From Candidatus Saccharimonadota bacterium (GTDB lineage Bacteria; Patescibacteriota; Saccharimonadia; Saccharimonadales; Saccharimonadaceae), in contig JAFUCF010000012.1 of the NCBI GenBank assembly GCA_017459845.1, forward strand, positions 4,120 through 68,119: a stretch of 64,000 nucleotides of DNA, given 5' to 3'. Shown piece by piece: positions 5,248 to 58,984 of this stretch. How positions within the stretch are numbered: position 1 is the first letter of the stretch; every line of letters starts with the position of its first letter. The notes beneath the pieces were generated by a model, which did no database searches, was not told where the DNA came from, and saw nothing but the letters and a program-made list of their open reading frames with translations. A program made the translations under genes and the position numbers.

Positions 5248-7101
5248 TTACTGCCTCGAGAGTTTTCTTTTTAAGACATAGCAGGCGGAGGCTACAATTA
5301 CTATCGTGAATATGGATGTATATGCCACTAGCTGAGCCTCCTGGACCGTGGCGTTATCGCCAGTATTTGGGACGGCCGGTGCCGGTATACTATCTTCGTT
5401 TTCTATGATGACAACTGTTTCAGCGGATTCATCTTCCCTACTTTCTTCTTCCTCCTTCTCTTCTGGTTTATCTTCTTCTGGCTCATCATCAATCACAATT
5501 AAACTCTTTAAAATTGGCATAATGCTCTCTGGGATGTGCCCGTAAACTAAGTTTTTAAAGTTGGAGGCAAGGGAGTAGGTGTAATATAACGAATAGTTAC
5601 TACCAAAGGTATCTTGAGTGTATTTTGCGTCGGCAACGATAAGCGGCGCTAGGGCCTTGACTAGTTTTGGAAGGTTCTCTTTTATAACGGAGTATTCTGC
5701 CATTGTTACCTTTGGTACCTCACCGAAGTTGTTTTCGTAATCTTCATATTCGCCCATGTACCTTGAGAGGTAGGAAATGAAATCGTCGATATCGGCTTCT
5801 ACGGCGGTACCCCTTAGGATTTTAACTAAATCTTGGTAAGGCGGGAAATTGCCTAGTATTTCTGCTAGGGTGCTACCAGGATATGTACCGCTTAGTAAAT
5901 CAGCAAAAGCGTTACCGGCTACCATACCAGCAAGGCCACTATCTGTATTCTTAAGAAAATCTGTAAACTCACTTTGTTTGTCTAAGGTGCGTAGCTGATA
6001 AAGTTGCATGATGGCCGAAAGTGGCGACTTAACTTCCGAATTGAAGTACTCGCGCGTTAGGCCATGCGCAATCATAAATCCAAACCAATCGTCCATAAAT
6101 TCTTTGCCATTTTCTTTGCCGACTTCTTTAGTTAATCCTTCATTAGACGAAAGGAGATTGAGCGCTCTAGAGCTGTCCGTTAAATCGGAGATATCAACTA
6201 CGGAGGTGCCAATTTCTAAGTCGGCGGGGTGTATTTCTTCATAAACGCCCGTATTGTAGAACCCCCAAAGTTCTGGGAATACGTACCCGAGTAGGAGATC
6301 GTTCCCGTCTTTTACGTCGTGAATGTTGGAATACTGAGTTTCTTCTACACTAGCTTTTGGCGCACCAAAAGTGTACGCATACAAGTTTTCTGGAGAGAGC
6401 TTGAAGCTAGCAATATTATCATTAATGTTTTTAGCTGCTAGATCAACAACGGCACCACCGCGAGAATAACCCACAATCCAGAGTTTGTAATTACTGAGAT
6501 TCCGACTAGCAATGTATTGGCTTAGCCTGTCTGTGATGAGACTTGCAGACTCGGCAAAGCCAGCATGATCGCCGCTCGTGCCGACATTGAAATTCGATAG
6601 CCACTCGGTCATATAGTTATAATTGCGTGGGGCAACGACTACTAGTTTTTCCCCGCTCATTAGCGTCTTCTCAGCGATGGTCGTGCCCATGGAATGCCCA
6701 TCAATCTCAGAACTAACATCCCATGACTCATAGTCGTGGAAGCCAAGTTGATTAAGAAGATCCCAGAGCTTAGGGTTTGCAACATCCGATTCTATAGGAT
6801 AGCCATCTGATAAGTTTTCATAGCCAGCCAAAGCCAAAGCATAAGATAGGGCGCGTAGCTCTGGATGCTCCCCTGCTGACGGCTCATCAAAGAATGTATC
6901 GCTATATTCTATGGTGCCTGTTTCGTCTAGGGCATCATAGACCGAGCCCCAAGGGTTATCAGGATCTTCAATGAACCCATAGTACGGGTATGTTACGGTG
7001 AACTTTTCGGCTGCCTGGACGTTTAGGGCTAGTGGGTTTAACAAAGAAACACCAACAACCAAGCCTACGCTGGCGGCGAGTATATTGCGGCGGCTAATCA
7101 T
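5248..7101 (-). CDS. Secreted class-3 lipase-like alpha/beta hydrolase with a C-terminal VPNTG-TM-basic anchor
   Basis: N-terminal signal ending AQA-like (VQAA); nucleophile elbow GYSRG; YTFGAP; candidate Asp (NDLL) and His (GHIPE); acidic linker; VPNTG, a hydrophobic helix and KRKLSRQ. Confidence 0.75.
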   Translation of the reverse strand: MISRRNILAASVGLVVGVSLLNPLALNVQAAEKFTVTYPYYGFIEDPDNPWGSVYDALDETGTIEYSDTFFDEPSAGEHPELRALSYALALAGYENLSDGYPIESDVANPKLWDLLNQLGFHDYESWDVSSEIDGHSMGTTIAEKTLMSGEKLVVVAPRNYNYMTEWLSNFNVGTSGDHAGFAESASLITDRLSQYIASRNLSNYKLWIVGYSRGGAVVDLAAKNINDNIASFKLSPENLYAYTFGAPKASVEETQYSNIHDVKDGNDLLLGYVFPELWGFYNTGVYEEIHPADLEIGTSVVDISDLTDSSRALNLLSSNEGLTKEVGKENGKEFMDDWFGFMIAHGLTREYFNSEVKSPLSAIMQLYQLRTLDKQSEFTDFLKNTDSGLAGMVAGNAFADLLSGTYPGSTLAEILGNFPPYQDLVKILRGTAVEADIDDFISYLSRYMGEYEDYENNFGEVPKVTMAEYSVIKENLPKLVKALAPLIVADAKYTQDTFGSNYSLYYTYSLASNFKNLVYGHIPESIMPILKSLIVIDDEPEEDKPEEKEEEESREDESAETVVIIENEDSIPAPAVPNTGDNATVQEAQLVAYTSIFTIVIVASACYVLKRKLSRQ

Positions 7102-8673: not shown

Positions 8674-8734
8674 AATTCCTCCTTAAAAAGTATTGCATCT
8701 ATTATACCATAGTGTTTATGCTTATACAAACAAA

Positions 8735-8761
8735 AAGGCCGGGATTTGCTCAGCCGGCCTT
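8735..8761 (-). terminator. Intrinsic terminator of the 68-aa gene
   Basis: On the minus strand: AAGGCCGG-loop-CCGGCCTTTTTG. Confidence 0.7.
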
Positions 8762-8776
8762 CGTAATCTATACTGA

Positions 8777-8983
8777 CTATTTCTTCTTGGAAAGAGTCAA
8801 GAAACCATTCCTTGGGTTTTCATTGACAACGCGATCCTCTGGAAGATCACAAGGAGTGCCCTTGCCGCCATCTTCAGTCTTGGTGAAGAAATAGATTGTC
8901 TGTGGCTTGCCACCGCGGAGAGTGACCTCGGACTTTCTTAGATAATAAGTTGTACCTTTGCTGTTGACATGTTTGTAAGCCAT
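8777..8983 (-). CDS. Small basic conserved hypothetical protein
   Basis: 68 aa with SD AAGGAGG upstream and its own terminator; MAYKHVNSKGTTYYL...LRGGKPQTIYFF pattern. Confidence 0.75.
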   Translation of the reverse strand: MAYKHVNSKGTTYYLRKSEVTLRGGKPQTIYFFTKTEDGGKGTPCDLPEDRVVNENPRNGFLTLSKKK

Positions 8984-9077
8984 GTTCCTCCTTAGTTGAT
9001 TGTATTTCTATCTTATATCTCTTTACAATACCTGTCAAGGTTTTTCTAGCTTGATTGTAAATTCTACCTAGCGTCTC

Positions 9078-9210
9078 GCATAATCAGCTCGTAACTTGGG
9101 TATTTTGGGGCCCTGTCTTCAAAAGCAATCCCATAAATTTCTTAAGGAAATTTATGGGCCCCTCTTTTGAAGCCACCCCAAAATAGCCCTAAGTAGGTCA
9201 CTGATTATGC
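9078..9210. repeat. Imperfect palindromic element, copy A (133 bp)
   Basis: Nested inverted repeats GCATAATCAG/CTGATTATGC, TATTTTGGGG/CCCCAAAATA, CTTCAAAAG/CTTTTGAAG and CCCATAAATTTC/GAAATTTATGGG; motifs shared with 13870-14011. Confidence 0.85.
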
Positions 9211-9888
9211 TTGGCTATGTTTTATCCTCAGCGTTATTCTCAAGGTGAGCCAGACGAAGAAACGGATGATAATAACAATGAGGAGGATAAGAGTAAGGAG
9301 GGAAACAATGCCAGACGGGGTGAAGGTGAGAATAGGGGAGATGAAATCATAGCGGTAGAGGGAGGTGGATGGCAAGCTGACTGTTACGTCAGAATCTATC
9401 GTATCCGTGGCAGGATACTTGCTGAGCTCGTTTTGGTAACAAGCGATATACTCTGAAGTGTTCCAATCCCAGCCGTTTTCATGGGCGAGCGGCTGACAAA
9501 CGGACATGGCCTGCGCGTAAATGTTGCCGTTGGGATTGGCATATACGCCTGCCGCCTCTTGGGCTTGGATTTTCATGGCAGTAGCAGTACGTTCGTAGGA
9601 TTTAGCTAAATAGATTTCGCCAGAGCCAAAGTAGAGGACAAAGTTGCCGTTTTTTTCTTCTATATTAACGACATTATGACTTTCTACAAAAGATTTAAGC
9701 TCGTTTAGGGCGGCTTTAGTTTTTTCGGCATCGCCAGTTTCGTCGGCGGCAACGACTGCATTCTTTAAATCGTTCATTTTGAGATGGTCGTAGCGAAGAA
9801 GGGTAGCAGAAATAAAAGCCAGCGGAATGAAAATTAGAACAAGCTGCCAGGTTTTGATTTTAGGGATTTTCTTAAAAGGTTTCTTCAT
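9205..9888 (-). CDS. Membrane-anchored hypothetical protein (N- and C-terminal TM helices)
   Basis: Likely start MKKPFKK at 9888; the longer ORF-track start overlaps murC and runs through a promoter region. Confidence 0.7.
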   Translation of the reverse strand: MKKPFKKIPKIKTWQLVLIFIPLAFISATLLRYDHLKMNDLKNAVVAADETGDAEKTKAALNELKSFVESHNVVNIEEKNGNFVLYFGSGEIYLAKSYERTATAMKIQAQEAAGVYANPNGNIYAQAMSVCQPLAHENGWDWNTSEYIACYQNELSKYPATDTIDSDVTVSLPSTSLYRYDFISPILTFTPSGIVSLLTLILLIVIIIRFFVWLTLRITLRIKHSQA

Positions 9889-9932
9889 GCTTCTCTCTAG
9901 GCCCACTAAGCCAATTATGTTATAATTATAAC

Positions 9933-11189
9933 ATGAATATTTATATTGCGGGAATTTCTGGAACAGGGATGGGGCCATTAGCTTTGATGGCAAAGGCGGC
10001 GGGATTTACCGTTTTTGGCTCAGACCTTAATGAAGGGGCAGTGGCGGCAGAATTACATAGAGAAAACATACCGGTAAAATTTGGGGCGCAGGATGGCGCC
10101 TTTCTTAGAAAATGCTACGAGGAGGAGGGGGTAGACTGGTTTGTCCATACCTCGGCGATGGGGAAAGATGCACCAGAGCTAAAAATGGCTGAAAGGCTGG
10201 GGGTGAGAATCACAAAGCGCGATGAGTTGATTGCATATCTTGTTAATAAGCTAGGGCTCAAAATGGTGGCCGTGGCAGGGACGCACGGCAAAACAACTAC
10301 CACAGCCCTTATTACTTGGGCATCGCTACAGCTAGGTTTGCCGGTAGCTTATCTCGTCGGCTCTACGCTTCCCTTTGCAGAAGCCGGGGCTTACTCACCA
10401 GATTCAAAATTTTTAGTCTATGAGGCGGACGAGTATGACCGCAATTTTTTGAAGTTTTACCCATGGGCAGCAGTGATTACGACGGTTTCTTATGACCACC
10501 CGGATATTTATCCAACAAAAGAGGATTACAAAGCGGCATTTGATAAATTCATTTCTCAGAGCGATCGTCTGATTTCAATCCCAAGCGAGCCGGATGATGA
10601 GTATCTAGCTGCGGTAAAGCAGCTAAACCTGGCCGGGGAAAAGCGGCGATACGATGCCGAGTTGGCATTAAACGCCGTGATGGCAATGTGCGAGGAAGTG
10701 GGAAAAGAAGTAAGCACTTCAGAAATTGTAGAGATACTAAATCAATTCCCGGGCGTAGGGAGAAGGTTTGAGAGAATCTCACCCGGAGTTTACTCTGATT
10801 ATGGGCATCATCCAGAAGAAATTGAAGCCACGGTACAGATTGCGATAGAAGAAGCAACGCGCCTTGGGCTAAAAGGTGTGGTAGTGGTTTACGAGCCGCA
10901 CCAGAACGTCCGCCAACACGAAGTGATTGATGGGTACCACAAAGCGTTTGAAGGGGCGAAACATATTTTTTGGCTACCAACCTATCTCACCCGCGAAAAC
11001 CCAGAGCTCAAGGTATTACAGCCGGCAGATTTTATCGCACGGCTAGACAATTCAGCCGAGGCTGAGCCGGGGGAGGTTAGCAGAGAACTATACGAAAAGC
11101 TCCGACAATATTTAGAAGACGGTTTCTTATTGCTCTTTATGTCGGCCGGCCCGCTTGACGCTTGGGTGAGAGAGCAGGATTGGAAATAG
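9933..11189 (+). CDS. murC: UDP-N-acetylmuramate-L-alanine ligase
   Basis: GISGTGMG, GTHGKTTT, EADEYD, DHPD, GVGRRFE and DYGHHPEEI motifs. Confidence 0.9.
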   Translation: MNIYIAGISGTGMGPLALMAKAAGFTVFGSDLNEGAVAAELHRENIPVKFGAQDGAFLRKCYEEEGVDWFVHTSAMGKDAPELKMAERLGVRITKRDELIAYLVNKLGLKMVAVAGTHGKTTTTALITWASLQLGLPVAYLVGSTLPFAEAGAYSPDSKFLVYEADEYDRNFLKFYPWAAVITTVSYDHPDIYPTKEDYKAAFDKFISQSDRLISIPSEPDDEYLAAVKQLNLAGEKRRYDAELALNAVMAMCEEVGKEVSTSEIVEILNQFPGVGRRFERISPGVYSDYGHHPEEIEATVQIAIEEATRLGLKGVVVVYEPHQNVRQHEVIDGYHKAFEGAKHIFWLPTYLTRENPELKVLQPADFIARLDNSAEAEPGEVSRELYEKLRQYLEDGFLLLFMSAGPLDAWVREQDWK

Positions 11190-12593
11190 ATAGACGTGGA
11201 GCGCGTTTGGCAACCCGCCGAAGAAAAACAGCGTAAAAGCAAATGCAACTAGTACGCTTATAAGAAGCGCGTCTGGTCTAATCCAATAGATAATAAAACC
11301 AACGGTAAGAGCAGCTAACAGAAAGCCGACAAGGCCTAGCTCTAGTAAAATAGACGCATACTGATTTTGGACGATTTCTTTAGAAAAACCTAGCTCTGGG
11401 TGCTTTTCATATAACTTAATCCCTGCTGAGCCGAGGCCGGTGCCAAAGAGAAGATTAGTAGGAGAATCATTCCAAACATCTAGAGCATCACGCGTGAGCT
11501 CGGAGCGGAAAGCGCTGGATTCCTCAACGTAGCCGTCAAAACTAGATTGCGTAGTTTCTGATTGTACTTCTGGAGCTGAACTAGTAGACACGGCTAATGA
11601 TTCAGTTGGGGAAGTTTGACTTGAAGCATCCGTTAGCTCGGCCGGCCGCAAATCTATCTTACCAAGCGAAAGCTGGTGGATGCTCTTGGAAACGCCCGTC
11701 CAAAAAGTATCGCTCGTAGGGGAAAGCTCTGCAAAAATACCCTGAATACAGAGTACGAAAAGAAAACAGCCTAAGGCAATAGGGATGATTAAGAAAGCCC
11801 TGCGATTAAAAGAGCCTTTATTTGACTTTTTCTTAATATATTTTATAACAGGGAATTGCGCGAGGAAAATTAGCCCTAACCCGATAATAAGAGCATAAAT
11901 AGCGCCACGCGAGAAAGTGAGAAAGATAGTGGAGATTAAAAAGATGGTAAAGATAGTCTGCCAGGCTTTCTTGAAAAGAGGATTTTTAGTAACTATCCCG
12001 TACACCGCTAGTAGGGCCGGGGCGAGCAAGAGGTTACCCGCGAATTGCGGCTCTATAGCAAAGCCATTAGGATGCGGATAGCCAAAAGAGAGGTAAGTGC
12101 AGCCGCGGCAAAGCAAAGTGACCGAGCGGCTGAGACCAAGCAAATCAAGAACACATTGTAGCCAACAGAATAGAGAAAACCCAATGCCGGCCAAGATGAG
12201 AATCTTTTGTAAGGTTTTTAACTTGGCTGGGTGCGTTTTAATAAAGTGATAAATGTTTAACCCAACAAAGACGAGGAGGAGAAGAAGGCCGGAAGTTAGG
12301 AGAGCACGGAGGTGGTTGGCGCTCCAGATAGAAGATAGTAGGGCATATACAGGGAATAATGAAAGTAAGAAAAGCTTTTTACCGTAAAACTTAATAAGCG
12401 ACTTTAGGTTTATAAGGCTAACTATGGCAAAGAGTACCAGCCAGATTTCAGCAAGGGAAAACTCAAAGTTGGTAGTATCAGTAGAGCCAATTGAGATGAC
12501 GGGGTGGTAAGAAAAGAATAGAGCAATTGGGCCAGCCAAAAGGAGCGCCCACTGCAAGGTTTGAAGGGAATTAACGAACCCCGATTTTTTCAT
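11127..12593 (-). CDS. O-antigen ligase / Wzy-like membrane protein
   Basis: About 12 TM segments; PNGFAIEP, TFSRGA and GTGLGS...QNQYASILLELGLVG, typical of the Wzy_C/WaaL fold. Confidence 0.75.
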   Translation of the reverse strand: MKKSGFVNSLQTLQWALLLAGPIALFFSYHPVISIGSTDTTNFEFSLAEIWLVLFAIVSLINLKSLIKFYGKKLFLLSLFPVYALLSSIWSANHLRALLTSGLLLLLVFVGLNIYHFIKTHPAKLKTLQKILILAGIGFSLFCWLQCVLDLLGLSRSVTLLCRGCTYLSFGYPHPNGFAIEPQFAGNLLLAPALLAVYGIVTKNPLFKKAWQTIFTIFLISTIFLTFSRGAIYALIIGLGLIFLAQFPVIKYIKKKSNKGSFNRRAFLIIPIALGCFLFVLCIQGIFAELSPTSDTFWTGVSKSIHQLSLGKIDLRPAELTDASSQTSPTESLAVSTSSAPEVQSETTQSSFDGYVEESSAFRSELTRDALDVWNDSPTNLLFGTGLGSAGIKLYEKHPELGFSKEIVQNQYASILLELGLVGFLLAALTVGFIIYWIRPDALLISVLVAFAFTLFFFGGLPNALHVYLFPILLSHPSVKRAGRHKEQ

Positions 12594-14025
12594 CTATGTA
12601 CTCCTTCATTTTAGCTTTAAAAATTTCTGTATCATAGGGAAGAGCGGTGGCGGAGATTTTGGAAGGGGAAAATACCTTAGGGCTAGTTTTTCTTAAATCA
12701 CAAAAGCGGTTAATACAACTAGCAAGAGAATCGGCCGTCTGATGGTCAAAGAATAAACCGTTTTCGCCATCCTTGATGTAATCTAGGGCGCCGCCTTTTT
12801 TGTAAGCCAAGACTGGGCAGCCGGCTGCGAGAGCTTCTACTGGCGCAATCCCAAAAGGCTCTTGGCTAGGGAAAAGATAGCCTTTGGCGTTTTTAAGATA
12901 GGTTTTTAGCTCGTCTTTATCCATTTTAGAGAGAAAAACAATATTGTCATGGCCTTTAGCCATACTTTGAAGTTTCCTGAGCTCTGGGCCATCGCCGATT
13001 AAGACTAAATTTTGGTGGGTTTTAATACAAGCCGCTATGGCAAGATCCAGGCGCTTCCAGTTAACCATACGAGAAGTAGTAATGAAATAACCATCTGAAC
13101 AAAAATCTTGCTCAAGAATTTGACTATTTGACATTTTTATTGTTTTATTATGGTTTTTATTTATTTGACTTTTCCCTACTTTGTTTTGTGATAAGTTTTC
13201 CACAGGGCTTGAATTTTCCCACATAAATGTTTTAGTATCAACTGGCGGGTAAATTACGGTTGCTTCCCTCTTATAAAAGCGCTTGATTTCCTGTTTGGCG
13301 TAGTTGGAAATAGTGATGTAATAATCTGGGAGTTTGGCAGCCGCGTAATCTTTTTTACGCATAGGTTTGACAAAAAGCTTTAGGCCTAGCCGGGCAAGCG
13401 GGTTAAGAAGGCCAAAGCCGGGATCTTTGAGGTACTGATCATATAAACCCCAATAGTACTGGGTAGGGACGTGACAAAAGCATATATGAGTAGTTTTTCC
13501 ACGGCTTGTGGAAATCTCTGTTCGGTTTTTTAAATTTTGTTCGGTTTTAATCTTATCTTTGTGAGTTTTGACATATTTTGCCTCGGCCCCCGTAACAGAA
13601 ATTACTAAGTCGTAATCCGTGAGGTCTAGTTTTTTGAAATAGCGAGCCCGGATTGGGCCAATAAATTTGCGGAGGCAATTGGGAAAATGCTGAAGGTAGC
13701 CGGTGCGGACATCGGCGTCTTTGAACCAGGTAATTCCCTTTGGATCGTATTTGGATGTATAGATAGGGGCAGATGGGAACATCTGGTGAAGCTCTAATAA
13801 AACCTTTTCCGCGCCACCAAAGTTTATAAGCCAGTCGCAGGCTAAGGCGACCTTTAAATCACTAGGCGCGCAAGCTGGCTCGTCCCGCAGGTGTTTTGTG
13901 GTCCTGTCCCGCACATCCCCAATAATCCTCGCCCGAGCTTCGCTCGTGCTCGGCTTTTGGGGGCCCCGTGCGGACCACCCCAAAACAGCCTTGCGAGGGT
14001 TACCAGCTTGCTTGTCGTCACTCAT
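12571..14025 (-). CDS. Glycosyltransferase family 4 carrying three in-frame insertions
   Basis: KVALACDWL..GGAEKV, YPPVD and EPFGIAPVEALAAGCPV; ATG at 14025 overlaps the upstream stop as ATGA. Confidence 0.9.
   Translation of the reverse strand: MSDDKQAGNPRKAVLGWSARGPQKPSTSEARARIIGDVRDRTTKHLRDEPACAPSDLKVALACDWLINFGGAEKVLLELHQMFPSAPIYTSKYDPKGITWFKDADVRTGYLQHFPNCLRKFIGPIRARYFKKLDLTDYDLVISVTGAEAKYVKTHKDKIKTEQNLKNRTEISTSRGKTTHICFCHVPTQYYWGLYDQYLKDPGFGLLNPLARLGLKLFVKPMRKKDYAAAKLPDYYITISNYAKQEIKRFYKREATVIYPPVDTKTFMWENSSPVENLSQNKVGKSQINKNHNKTIKMSNSQILEQDFCSDGYFITTSRMVNWKRLDLAIAACIKTHQNLVLIGDGPELRKLQSMAKGHDNIVFLSKMDKDELKTYLKNAKGYLFPSQEPFGIAPVEALAAGCPVLAYKKGGALDYIKDGENGLFFDHQTADSLASCINRFCDLRKTSPKVFSPSKISATALPYDTEIFKAKMKEYIDEKIGVR
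13870..14011. repeat. Imperfect palindromic element, copy B (142 bp), inside the GT4 reading frame
   Basis: Nested inverted repeats GCAAGCTGG/CCAGCTTGC, TGTTTTG/CAAAACA, TGGTCC/GGACCA, CCGCAC/GTGCGG and CCGAGC/GCTCGG. Confidence 0.85.
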
Positions 14026-15446
14026 TTTGCGCCTCGGCCGGTTATAACCACGGCGATGGTGCGGAGAAGGATTTGGAGGTCTAGCCAGAATGACCAATTC
14101 TGGATGTAGTATAGGTCTAGGGCGCGGCGCTCCTCAAAGGATATGTCGCGGCGGCCGGAGACTTGAGCAAGTCCGGTAAGACCGGATTTGACCGAGAGAA
14201 GCAAGGAGCGGTCGCCATAATCGCGTAGCTCGCCAGGTACTAAGGCGCGCGGGCCAACCAGCGAAATATCGCCCTTTAAGACGTTGATAAGCTGAGGGAG
14301 TTCGTCTAGAGAAGTACGGCGAATAAAATGGCCAATCTTGGTGACGCGCGGATCATCCTTGATGTAATCGCCACCGCTGCGATACTTTTCGATTAACTCT
14401 GGGCGGCCCATTTTAGCAAAGGCCTCCTCAGGGGAAAGCCCAGAATACTCTGGCTTTATAGAGCGGAACTTATAAATCTTCACCTTTTTATTGTAACGGC
14501 TAAGACGATATTCTGCGTAAAAGGCCGAGTGCTTAATGTCTGATAACTTAACAATGAGCCAGATAACACCCATAGGAATAGCGGCGATGATGACTGCGAT
14601 GAGACCAAGTACAATATCCATAATGCGTTTTACGATGCGGGCAGAGCCAACAAGCGGAGTGACCTTGACTAGCATAGCCGGCGTGCCGCCGATAAGCTCT
14701 AGCTCCCCAATATGGGAAGACAACGAAGATTCTGTTGGGACAAAATAATAACGCATGTGATGCTTGATAGACTCCGCATAGACATATTCTGTCCTTTCCT
14801 CATCTGTCTGGAAGATAACATCGGCATCAGTCTCCTCCAATGCGGCGGCAAGGGAGCTAAATTGGTACTTGCGGAGCTCCTCTGGGACAAAGCTATTACC
14901 GGCGACAATCCCCTTCAGCCGGAAGCCATCTTCTGGGAAATCTACAATATGTTCTATTAAGCGCTCGGTATTTTTATTGTTGCCAATAATAATAGTGCCG
15001 ATGCCGCTGGTAAGGCGGGTATTGAGAGCACGGCGCAGGAAACGGGCGATGAACCGAACAAAGAGCAGCATTACGAAACAGAAAATGAGCGCCCAAAGCG
15101 CAACCGCGCGACTTGGGAAAAGACTGGCCTTAGTAAAGAACTGGTAGGAAACAAGTATCATCATGCCTAAAACTGAGGCGGCAAAGGCACGGGCAATTTC
15201 TGGCAAACGAGAGCGGCCGTTGTATACCTTACGACTGTATAACCCAACGAGAGCTAAGATAATCCACCAAATCGGGATGAGCACGAGGACGGACAGAAGA
15301 AATGTCCAGGGATCCTTTTCAAAGTAAAATGGCCGGGAATCAAGATTAGTACGTACGAGATAAGCAAAGAAAAAGGAAGCCACAATCGCCAACGCATCGC
15401 CAAACATTAACCATAGGACGTAAACTAAACCTGGTTCTTTTTTCAT
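14022..15446 (-). CDS. Undecaprenyl-phosphate glycosylphosphotransferase (WbaP/WcaJ-type priming transferase)
   Basis: Four N-terminal TMs; KRIMDI, YKFRSI, DDPRVTKIGHFIRRTSLDELPQLINVLKGDISLVGPR, GLTGLAQV and DLYYIQNWS. Confidence 0.93.
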   Translation of the reverse strand: MKKEPGLVYVLWLMFGDALAIVASFFFAYLVRTNLDSRPFYFEKDPWTFLLSVLVLIPIWWIILALVGLYSRKVYNGRSRLPEIARAFAASVLGMMILVSYQFFTKASLFPSRAVALWALIFCFVMLLFVRFIARFLRRALNTRLTSGIGTIIIGNNKNTERLIEHIVDFPEDGFRLKGIVAGNSFVPEELRKYQFSSLAAALEETDADVIFQTDEERTEYVYAESIKHHMRYYFVPTESSLSSHIGELELIGGTPAMLVKVTPLVGSARIVKRIMDIVLGLIAVIIAAIPMGVIWLIVKLSDIKHSAFYAEYRLSRYNKKVKIYKFRSIKPEYSGLSPEEAFAKMGRPELIEKYRSGGDYIKDDPRVTKIGHFIRRTSLDELPQLINVLKGDISLVGPRALVPGELRDYGDRSLLLSVKSGLTGLAQVSGRRDISFEERRALDLYYIQNWSFWLDLQILLRTIAVVITGRGAK

Positions 15447-33759: not shown

Positions 33760-33930
33760 TTACCACTATCTAGCCTTTGCTAGACGCTACTCGCCGCCCG
33801 CTACCGCCGAAAAAGCACAACAAATAGCCTATCTTCAGAGCGCTTATATTTGGCGCTCTTCAGATAGGTATTAGTTGTACTTTTTGCGGGGCGAGTAACG
33901 CATTGTCTAGCAAAGGCTAGGTGGTGGTAA
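33760..33930. other. 171-bp rod-like imperfect hairpin (candidate ncRNA or MITE-like element)
   Basis: 26-bp terminal inverted repeat with 2 mismatches, plus inner stems TACTCGCC/GGCGAGTA, AAAAAGCACAAC/GTTGTACTTTTT, CCTATCT/AGATAGG and AGAGCGC/GCGCTCT. Confidence 0.8.
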
Positions 33931-57595: not shown

Positions 57596-58984
57596 GTGTT
57601 TGATGTGTGGAAAAATGTCTTAGCAGATATAGAACAGTCTGTACCCCATACTATTTATATCACCTTCTTTACCCCTACTAAGCTTATTTCTATTGAAAAC
57701 CAGGTAGTAAAAATTGGTACGCCAAATGTGTTTGTTGTAAGGCAACTCCGGGGCAAGTATAATAAAAATGTTATAGCAGCGCTACAGAAAAACGGTGTAG
57801 ACTTTAAGGAAGTAGAATATATAGTGGAGTCTTCCACAAAAATTAAAAAGAAAAGCTCTGGCCGCGAGGTTTTAGAAAAAGATGTAAAAACCGCTAGCTC
57901 TGTAGTAAAAAGCCTACCAAGCAAGCTACCGGAAAAGCACGCGAAAATACTCGGCACCGGGCTAAACCCAAATTATACTCTAGATTCGTTTGTGGTGGGC
58001 TCTAATAATGACCTAGCCGTATCTATCGCTAAGAATGTTATTAAAAACCCTGGCTCTAAATATAACCCCTTCTTCTTATACGGTGGTCCTGGGCTTGGAA
58101 AAACCCACTTGGTGCAGGCAATCGGGAATGAAATTATTAAGCTTCACCCAGAAATAAAGGTGCTTTATACTCCAACTAATCATTTCTTTTCTGAATTTAT
58201 TGAGTTGATTAAGAAGAATAGAGGCGATGAGTTTGCCCAGAAATATCGGAAACTCGACGTTTTAATTATTGATGATTTTCAGCAGATTATCAATAAGGAT
58301 AGAAGCCAGGAGGAATTCTTTAATATCTTTAATGATTTACATCAGGCTAATAAACAGATTATCGTTACCTCTGATAGGTTGCCAGAACAGATTGAGAAAT
58401 TAGACGTAAGGCTATCCTCTAGACTAACCTGGGGTTCTGGGGCGATTGATTTACAAATGCCAACCTTTGAAGATAAATGCGCAATTTTACGCTCGATGGC
58501 AGAGATTGGTGGATATGAGATTGAGGATGAAGCAATAGCCTATCTTGCAGAAAATGTTAAAACTAATATCCGTGATTTAGAAGGCCAACTACACAGATTA
58601 ATTGCAATTGCAGAACTTCGTAATAAAACACCGCTTGAAATTATCAATGATAGCTCCATAGGCGAGGTAGTAGTACTAAGCAGAGCTAAAGGTGGGGCTA
58701 TCCAGCCAAGGAAAATAGTTGAAAAGGTGGCTAAGGCTTATGGGTTAACCGTGGAAGAAATGACTAGCAAAAGCAGAGTCTCGCATATCAAGAACGCACG
58801 GCAAGTCGCAATGTATTTACTACAGGAGGAGGCAAATCTTTCTACTAATAAGATTGCTTCAGAGGTGGGTGTGAAAGACCACTCTACGGTGATGCATGGG
58901 ATTAGGAAGATTAAGAAGGATTTAAAACTAGATTTTGGCTTGAGAGAACAAATATCTTCTATTCGTGGGAGCCTATATGACTAA
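57596..58984 (+). CDS. dnaA: Chromosomal replication initiator DnaA
   Basis: GGPGLGKTHL, LIIDDFQ, SRLTWG, IRDLEG and KDHSTVMHG; GTG start after AAGGAGG. Confidence 0.97.
   Translation: MFDVWKNVLADIEQSVPHTIYITFFTPTKLISIENQVVKIGTPNVFVVRQLRGKYNKNVIAALQKNGVDFKEVEYIVESSTKIKKKSSGREVLEKDVKTASSVVKSLPSKLPEKHAKILGTGLNPNYTLDSFVVGSNNDLAVSIAKNVIKNPGSKYNPFFLYGGPGLGKTHLVQAIGNEIIKLHPEIKVLYTPTNHFFSEFIELIKKNRGDEFAQKYRKLDVLIIDDFQQIINKDRSQEEFFNIFNDLHQANKQIIVTSDRLPEQIEKLDVRLSSRLTWGSGAIDLQMPTFEDKCAILRSMAEIGGYEIEDEAIAYLAENVKTNIRDLEGQLHRLIAIAELRNKTPLEIINDSSIGEVVVLSRAKGGAIQPRKIVEKVAKAYGLTVEEMTSKSRVSHIKNARQVAMYLLQEEANLSTNKIASEVGVKDHSTVMHGIRKIKKDLKLDFGLREQISSIRGSLYD

Follow-up and report, generated by a model that had tools for sequence, protein, structure and literature searches.

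We showed that two imperfect palindromes from a ruminant-gut Candidatus Saccharibacteria host (Nanosyncoccus-like), designated copies A and B, belong to a real, dispersed, low-copy and mosaic family of rod-forming repeats (family 1), the copies of which lie exactly at gene boundaries, in the sense orientation. They are probably non-autonomous repeats of low copy number, i.e. selfish foldback DNA of the MITE/REPIN/RPE/ERIC kind, which spreads at the DNA level, can be accommodated in this very compact genome at gene boundaries alone, and becomes part of mRNAs. The genomes of the Candidate Phyla Radiation are tiny, densely packed and generally thought to be repeat-poor. In this Saccharibacteria genome at least two to three families of rod-forming palindromes turn over quickly at gene junctions, and they alter protein termini by providing a new stop codon, a predicted 56-residue N-terminal extension and a C-terminal extension.

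The window (the whole 64-kb stretch of DNA that was analysed) is part of scaffold_395, an 84-kb ruminant-gut metagenome scaffold whose closest relatives are Candidatus Saccharibacteria/Nanosyncoccus MAGs from goat, sheep and deer gut. The minus strand holds nearly all of the genes near A and B, the exception being a Mur-ligase-like gene (9933-11189, plus strand). Copy A is placed between a gene for a 227-aa protein and a conserved 68-aa gene, and copy B between the genes of a Bac_transf sugar transferase and a GT4 glycosyltransferase. The genes flanking the rods have housekeeping or cell-envelope roles and are syntenic in all of the relatives compared. The G+C content of B is 64%, against 42-44% for the genome.

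Two rods with a common scaffold

The following features describe copies A and B:
9078-9210, minus strand (taken as the sense and folding strand): copy A of family 1, an imperfect palindrome of 133 nt
13870-14011, minus strand: copy B of family 1, 142 nt, with the scaffold and loops of A
9112-9116, minus strand: ACAGG, the 3' side of a conserved asymmetric internal loop, with its partner (U)GG at 9173-9175
9130-9158, both strands: apical hairpin of A, terminator-like
9060-9077, minus strand: 3' tail of A on the sense strand, GAGACGCTAGGTAGAATT

The original prediction described A and B as rods, and folding agreed with it (z about -9 and -6, respectively). Copy A forms a single rod of four or five nested helices, with a dG of -60.3 kcal/mol on the plus strand and -66.4 kcal/mol on the minus strand (z -9.2 and -9.6), and the corresponding values for B are -70.1 and -74.9 kcal/mol (z -6.4 and -6.0). 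None of 200 shuffles was as stable in either case, and the minus-strand folds of both copies are better by 4-6 kcal/mol. The motifs claimed to be common to the two copies are indeed present, and each of the 18-nt motifs GTRTTTTGKGGYCCTGTC and CCACCCCAAAA was found at A and B only within the 64 kb, while GCTCGT and RGGTYA proved to be the two sides of a conserved 5x5 internal loop. The stems had also been said to differ in sequence and still pair; this was borne out by an RNAalifold consensus of A and B, in which 13 of the 38 pairs are changed on both sides with pairing kept.

The similarity of the copies was compared with hairpin-preserving shuffles, in which base pairs were permuted as pairs, a control that had been suggested together with the prediction. 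The local score of A against B was 27, compared with 14.3 +/- 2.0 in the shuffles, and was reached by 1 of 2000 of them; pure chance was rejected as its source on this ground. For A against a further copy, I, the score was 41, compared with 14.0 +/- 2.2 (0 of 1000). The family had been presented as undescribed, and Rfam provided no match at A or B: at the gathering threshold the whole window contained two tRNAs only, and in the region 8700-14400 a search at E<=10 returned chance lncRNA/sRNA matches elsewhere and none on either copy.

On the sense strand the 5' half of family 1 has the order P1, (U)GACC, P2a, A, GG(G), C, P2c, UGG, P3 and apex, which is followed in the 3' half by P3', ACAGG, P2c', CC(C), P2a', ACGAG and P1'. 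In A (minus strand) P1 is GCATAATCAGT/GCTGATTATGC, followed by the 5x5 loop (U)GACC/ACGAG, P2a (ACTT/AAGT), a bulged A, the pairs GGG/CCC, a bulged C, P2c (TATTTTGGGGT/GCCCCAAAATA), the 3x5 loop UGG/ACAGG, P3 (CTTCAAAAG/CTTTTGAAG) and the apex CCCATAAATTTC-CTTAA-GAAATTTATGGG. The apex of A, with a stem of 12-13 bp followed by a T-rich tail (also the P3 arm), is terminator-like on both strands; its stem is A+T-rich and has four G-C pairs, although it passes a simple terminator scan on both strands. Copy B has no U tract and is located in coding sequence. CTAG-containing tails like that of A are present also in copies B, F, G and I, and the allele-specific segment at A ends at 9069/9070.

Two known structures were considered and rejected. 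The 3x5 loop, by inspection, is not a K-turn, as it contains G.G where G.A pairs are required. A single-strand origin of the ssoA type is not indicated either, since TAGCGT adjoins A only and the context is chromosomal.

Distribution and mosaic structure of family 1

The predicted dispersal of the family was confirmed by further copies. A single genome or sample accounts for at least five in all: scaffold_395 carries A, B and I, and D and F are on other contigs of equal depth. Altogether, three full copies (A, B and I) and six partial ones (C-H) are known. Copy I, which lies ~400 bases outside the end of the window (L208, 13036-13126, minus strand), was detected by the covariance model and by a loop descriptor. 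It has the same scaffold, with the sequence ACACGGG-TGG-CACTCGC-[apex]-GCGAGTG-ACAGG-CCCCGTGT and an apex clearly homologous to that of A, and it lies inside the 3' end of a 927-aa ORF, which reads through it. Its neighbours are a gene with a Phage_lysozyme2 match and a cluster resembling type IV secretion genes (TraG/VirB4-like, TraC-like, PrgI).

The partial copies D and F were found on other contigs of the same sample with equal depth (~60x), the sample being inferred from an identical 12,346-nt contig. Copy D, with ~90% identity to A, is cut off by the end of its contig; F matches B exactly in the outer part and differs in the centre. The other four are from related gut metagenomes: C, in which the outer stem resembles that of B and the apex that of A; G, with ends like those of B; the truncated E; and H, an A-like 5' arm.

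The helix pairs of A, D, I and B were tabulated by hand. P2c (TATTTTGGGGT in A, ACACGGG in I), P3 (CTTCAAAAG in A, TCCAAAAC in D, TCCGCACG in B, CACTCGC in I) and P4 all vary among these four copies; 99 standard pairs were counted among the 102 in the list. A, B and I do not differ in the unpaired UGG/ACAGG loop, in which D has GCAGG. There are eight G.U wobbles on the sense strand versus one C.A, and all three full copies are sense to their genes.

The rod apex of A, D and I (alike, with compensatory changes in which T/A pairs are swapped) differs from those of B and F. The apex of B holds a nested GC-rich module, AGCCGAGCAC GAGCGAAGCTC GGGCGAGG, with a GCGAAGC hairpin. The module occurs alone at the B-site of L009 and the A-site of L010, i.e. 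at other sites in relatives, and B is therefore a nested composite. The copies are thus mosaics of an outer stem, a scaffold with two conserved internal loops and two bulges, and a variable apex, and one module can sit nested in the apex of another. The GC-rich module consists of a cGAAg-loop hairpin of the GCGAAGC type, a DNA mini-hairpin known for its high stability, followed by GCGAGG (window 13925-13960; L009, ~13900-13960; L010, 3873-4160).

The ends differ as well: GCAAGCTGG/CCAGCTTGC are common to B, C, F and G, and (AA)TCAG/CTGA(TT) to A, D, E and H, while copy I has neither type. Since the A and B subfamilies differ in their outer stems, no single terminal inverted repeat defines family 1. 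The 5-nt sequence AGTGA flanks B and is a candidate direct repeat, as deletion of one AGTGA together with the 154 nt between the repeats (159 nt in total) would restore MSDLKVAL. No comparable direct repeat flanks A or I.

Family 1 was seen within one species cluster only. The covariance-model search that had been proposed recovered copy I on the scaffold, and 1.53 Mb in 80 loci of other Saccharibacteria species added nothing to A and B. The pattern TTTTGNGGNCCTGTC N{40,70} CCACCCCAAAA had no match among GTDB species representatives, and none of the six matches of a looser pattern in JGI metagenomes was a rod. A 17-base pattern had 98 matches in IMG/VR; none of the 80 loci listed folded as a strong rod, so these look like chance matches. 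The descriptor of the loop motifs with free stems was not enriched over permuted motifs and gave A, B, I and the doubtful L048 only. The latter (L048, 5942-6145; descriptor match 6010-6080) is a rod upstream of a ruvC-like gene with a similar internal loop (GGG-TCCTGCC-stem ... stem-GTCA-CCC), and it may be a distant relative of family 1. Multi-frame translations of A and B matched, among proteins, only the GT4 of the window itself.

Turnover at gene junctions

The two sites occupied by A and B are defined by the following features:
9205-9207, minus strand: TAA stop of the 227-aa gene (9205-9888, minus strand), inside the 5' arm of the outer stem of A
8777-8983, minus strand: conserved 68-aa gene downstream of A; on the right-hand side it is the fixed border of the variable A-site
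13855-14022, minus strand: B with linkers, a 168-nt stop-free in-frame insertion between the ATG of GT4 and its conserved KVALACDW start
12571-14025, minus strand: GT4 glycosyltransferase gene as called (484 aa), reading through B

The TAA of the 227-aa gene was found, as anticipated, within the outer stem of A, in the arm GCATAATCAG. In the empty alleles of L009 and L012 this gene ends ...RK*, and A adds HSQA and TAA after the last shared codon; the native stop codon has given way to one that comes with copy A. In near-identical strains the borders of the A-site (9069/9070 and the stop codon) are fixed and its contents differ, comprising a family-2 rod (L204, L203), a palindromic stub of 40 nt, apparently what is left of a rod (L196, L202), and other sequences.

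The 68-aa gene has a promoter-like site, TTGACA-17-TAAGAT, at 9038-9010. Its product has no Pfam match and shows 86-99% identity across species that are otherwise 50-80% identical (window 8777-9060, L007-L014). Upstream of the gene there is a conserved GTRAAATTTACAA box; L008 and L010 have it as the apex of a ~20-bp perfect palindrome, within which the -35 region also lies.

At the B-site the ATG of GT4 overlaps the stop codon of the upstream Bac_transf gene. L007, L008 and L206 have no insertion here: their two genes share an ATGA overlap, and GT4 begins with MKVAL or MRVAL; orthologues without the insertion have 426 aa (L206). Empty alleles, which had been proposed as something to look for, thus exist at both sites. 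The insertion of B and its linkers is predicted to add 56 N-terminal residues to GT4. There is no in-frame start between the end of B and KVALACDW, and the TTG and GTG candidates lie inside B, so translation of GT4 would have to begin in B or upstream of it. Two linker variants, MSDDKQAG... and MTTNDSAQAG..., both preserve the frame. The X5 strain has B with one mismatch and a different linker, still in frame, the X6 and X10 runs have B with variant linkers, and the X7 and X9 strains carry a different rod at the site. The presence of B and I within reading frames is tolerated because neither contains a stop or shifts the frame.

The presence of empty, occupied and replaced alleles at fixed borders identifies the A-site and the B-site as hot spots of gain, loss and replacement. 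It could be that this fast in-place turnover is due partly to recombination between strains, and not to transposition.

In L009, a relative of 75% identity, the same gene junction holds a different in-frame insertion of ~100 nt (13860-14000). A diverged second copy of the gene start (MKVALACD ... KVALVCD) flanks the insertion, whose last hairpin is an exact inverted copy of the first codons of the gene.

A second family of rods, unrelated to the first, is also present in the window:
33760-33930, minus strand: family-2 rod, with its core at 33784-33906

Further copies of family 2 occur in L007 (3100-3270, its A-site), L010 (6030-6220) and L204 (about 270-530). In the window's own sample the depth rises from 57x to 470-1045x over the core, which indicates roughly 8-18 copies. 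Every copy examined is enclosed by an outer inverted repeat of ~20-30 bp that is particular to it, and in the window this copy-specific stem pairs 33760-33783 with 33907-33930. In L007 and L010 the 3' end of the upstream CDS doubles as the 5' arm of the outer stem, and an inverted copy of it makes up the 3' arm; in L009 this flank is present and the inverted copy is missing. This tendency is visible more weakly in family 1, where the outermost GCATAA/TTATGC of A is copy-specific, F has ATCTGT/ACAGAT outside P1, and in the X5 variant of B the outer stem is lengthened by GCGC. We infer that the arrangement "flank - core - inverted flank", which lacks a direct target duplication, is the trace expected of hairpin-primed or template-switch copying. 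Several family-2 apices resemble canonical bidirectional terminators.

Origin and maintenance of the rods

The original prediction likened the rods to REP, RPE or PATE elements, and these likenesses are analogies only. A, B and I lack a GTAG head (no GTAG stands at a conserved position), and no family-wide terminal repeats or target duplications were found. With RPE, family 1 shares palindromic rods of 100-150 bp that are intergenic, or in-frame and stop-free in genes, in a small host-dependent genome. Here the parallels are B in the GT4 gene, where it is in frame, stop-free and absent from orthologues, and I in the tail of the 927-aa gene, where it is read through. In contrast to RPE, to which no sequence relationship is known, the host belongs to another phylum, the copy number is much lower and the copies are at gene start/stop junctions, not inside domains.

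The likeness to REPINs and REP-BIMEs includes inverted arms forming a long hairpin that is kept across copies, a variable apex, non-autonomy, and co-transcribed positions at gene 3' ends. Like the inverted doublet of a REPIN, the family forms one long hairpin (z -6 to -9) with a variable apex; however, its arms are not small palindromes themselves, it has only a handful of copies and no RAYT (Y1/HUH) appears in the gene tables of the scaffold. The search for a linked HUH/RAYT or TnpA gene, which had been proposed in advance, was carried out in gene tables covering ~74 kb of the 84-kb scaffold (Pfam), and no transposase, RAYT, reverse transcriptase or integrase domain was found there.

ERIC/IRU and Correia (NEMIS) elements are likewise imperfect palindromes of ~130 nt in transcribed regions; as RNA rods they affect mRNA processing and stability, and internal insertions give rise to size variants. 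They have conserved terminal inverted repeats and a TA target duplication, whereas family 1 has neither, and its outer stems differ between subfamilies and are partly copy-specific. Terminal inverted repeats conserved in all copies, as in a MITE, are not found in family 1. The general kind of element is known, and what is new is the lack of shared terminal repeats, the apparent lack of target duplications, the copy-specific outer stems, the nesting and the rapid allelic replacement. A full-text search of a paper library returned no description of palindromic repeats or MITEs of this sort in Saccharibacteria/Patescibacteria.

The position and structure of the rods could also be read in functional terms, as cis-acting RNA in polycistronic mRNAs (a site of RNase III-type processing, a stabiliser, an insulator or a terminator), with a selected structure and incidental duplication. 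Such a role would fit the location of all three full copies, sense and exactly between cistrons, the conserved internal loops and bulges beside covarying helices, the wobble count and the better fold of the minus strand, as well as the terminator-like apex of A. We nevertheless regard it as unlikely, because orthologous junctions in relatives work without any rod, near-identical strains hold unrelated rods or a stub at the same site, no Rfam family matches, and a rod of -75 kcal/mol in coding sequence, where B and I are located, should hinder translation. Somewhat less likely still is that there is no dedicated mobility, i.e. that palindromes arise and grow in place, at permissive gene junctions, by replication fold-back or template switching, and that loci come to resemble each other when hairpins occasionally undergo ectopic gene conversion or template switching. 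Against this, identical asymmetric loops recur at unrelated loci in cores 90-120 nt long, the copy number of family 2 is roughly 8-18 in a genome, and arm-to-arm copying should erase asymmetric loops, yet they are kept. In-place growth would, on the other hand, explain the outer stems that are inverted upstream flank (L007 and L010, including the 3' CDS end), the inverted gene start in the last hairpin of L009, the separate outer inverted repeat of at least 24 bp of every family-2 copy, the GCGC lengthening in X5, the mosaic copies C and F, and the fact that neither a transposase nor a target duplication was found.

The rods have features of the attC sites of integrons too: structure conserved over sequence in imperfect hairpins of ~90-142 nt, conserved unpaired bases, variable terminal structure, a preference of one strand for folding, a position at gene 3' ends, and alternative sequences at the same site across strains. 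That they are recombination sites of an integron-type cassette system is nonetheless extremely improbable, and we rejected this candidate. The ends of A and B (sense CAAGCA ... TGCG; right end of the plus strand TGCTTG) lack RYYYAAC/GTTRRRY core sites, i.e. R'/R'', the gene tables, over ~74 kb of the scaffold, show no integrase, neither genes nor cassettes are present in the variable segments, and the flanking genes are syntenic housekeeping and cell-envelope genes in all relatives.

The reading as selfish foldback repeats, which we prefer, has evidence against it as well: the low copy number (three full and six partial copies), the lack of a transposase-type gene in the ~74 kb of scaffold gene tables, the lack of a target duplication except for the candidate AGTGA at B, the different outer stems of the two subfamilies, the restriction of the matches to one species cluster, and a turnover that may be due partly to recombination between strains. 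In this reading, a family-1 element would spread as DNA, and the conserved unpaired UGACC/ACGAG and UGG/ACAGG might form the recognition surface for the copying machinery. The arms may be kept complementary partly by palindrome-specific copying (fold-back, template switching or recombination between copies) and partly by constraint on the folded sense strand. Given their position at gene boundaries and their sense orientation, the copies would be part of mRNA, and the rod RNA probably acts incidentally, as an intercistronic stabiliser, a processing site or a weak terminator.

Selection for structure was claimed at the outset. The stems do covary, but selection itself is not established, since palindrome-specific mutation can maintain complementary arms and palindromic copying gives the same pairing; some outer stems are plainly inverted copies of the local flank, so complementary arms are possible without selection. 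A constraint on the folded sense strand, as RNA or single-stranded DNA, is suggested by three features taken together, namely asymmetric loops that persist, an excess of wobble pairs on that strand and a single orientation throughout, and with three to four copies this is suggestive only.

More tentatively, and with a rather low probability in our opinion, the rods may represent a distinct foldback element that does without classical transposition. At a gene boundary, a nick or a nascent strand would take up a copy of a hairpin-forming core; the hairpin so formed would serve as the primer for synthesis on the flank upstream of it, and the outcome would be the order flank, core and inverted flank with no direct duplication. 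The UGG/ACAGG and UGACC/ACGAG loops would be candidate binding surfaces for a protein, and later cores might land in the apices of earlier ones, resulting in nested rods in mRNAs and even in proteins. If the inverted-flank signature does reflect insertion, small palindromes may spread in a manner outside the MITE, REP and IS200/IS605 models.

A region with dnaA, dnaN, rpmH, rnpA and yidC, at window 57596-58984 and next to it, is likely to be the replication-origin region; the cumulative GC skew, with no clear switch there, climbs over almost the whole window.

The repeats of both families disturb the annotation and assembly of MAGs: gene callers extend GT4 through B (window 12571-14097, 484 aa), and the Logan contigs of several runs end inside copies of family 1 and family 2. 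The rods, through which gene callers read, should be masked in pipelines that annotate such genomes.
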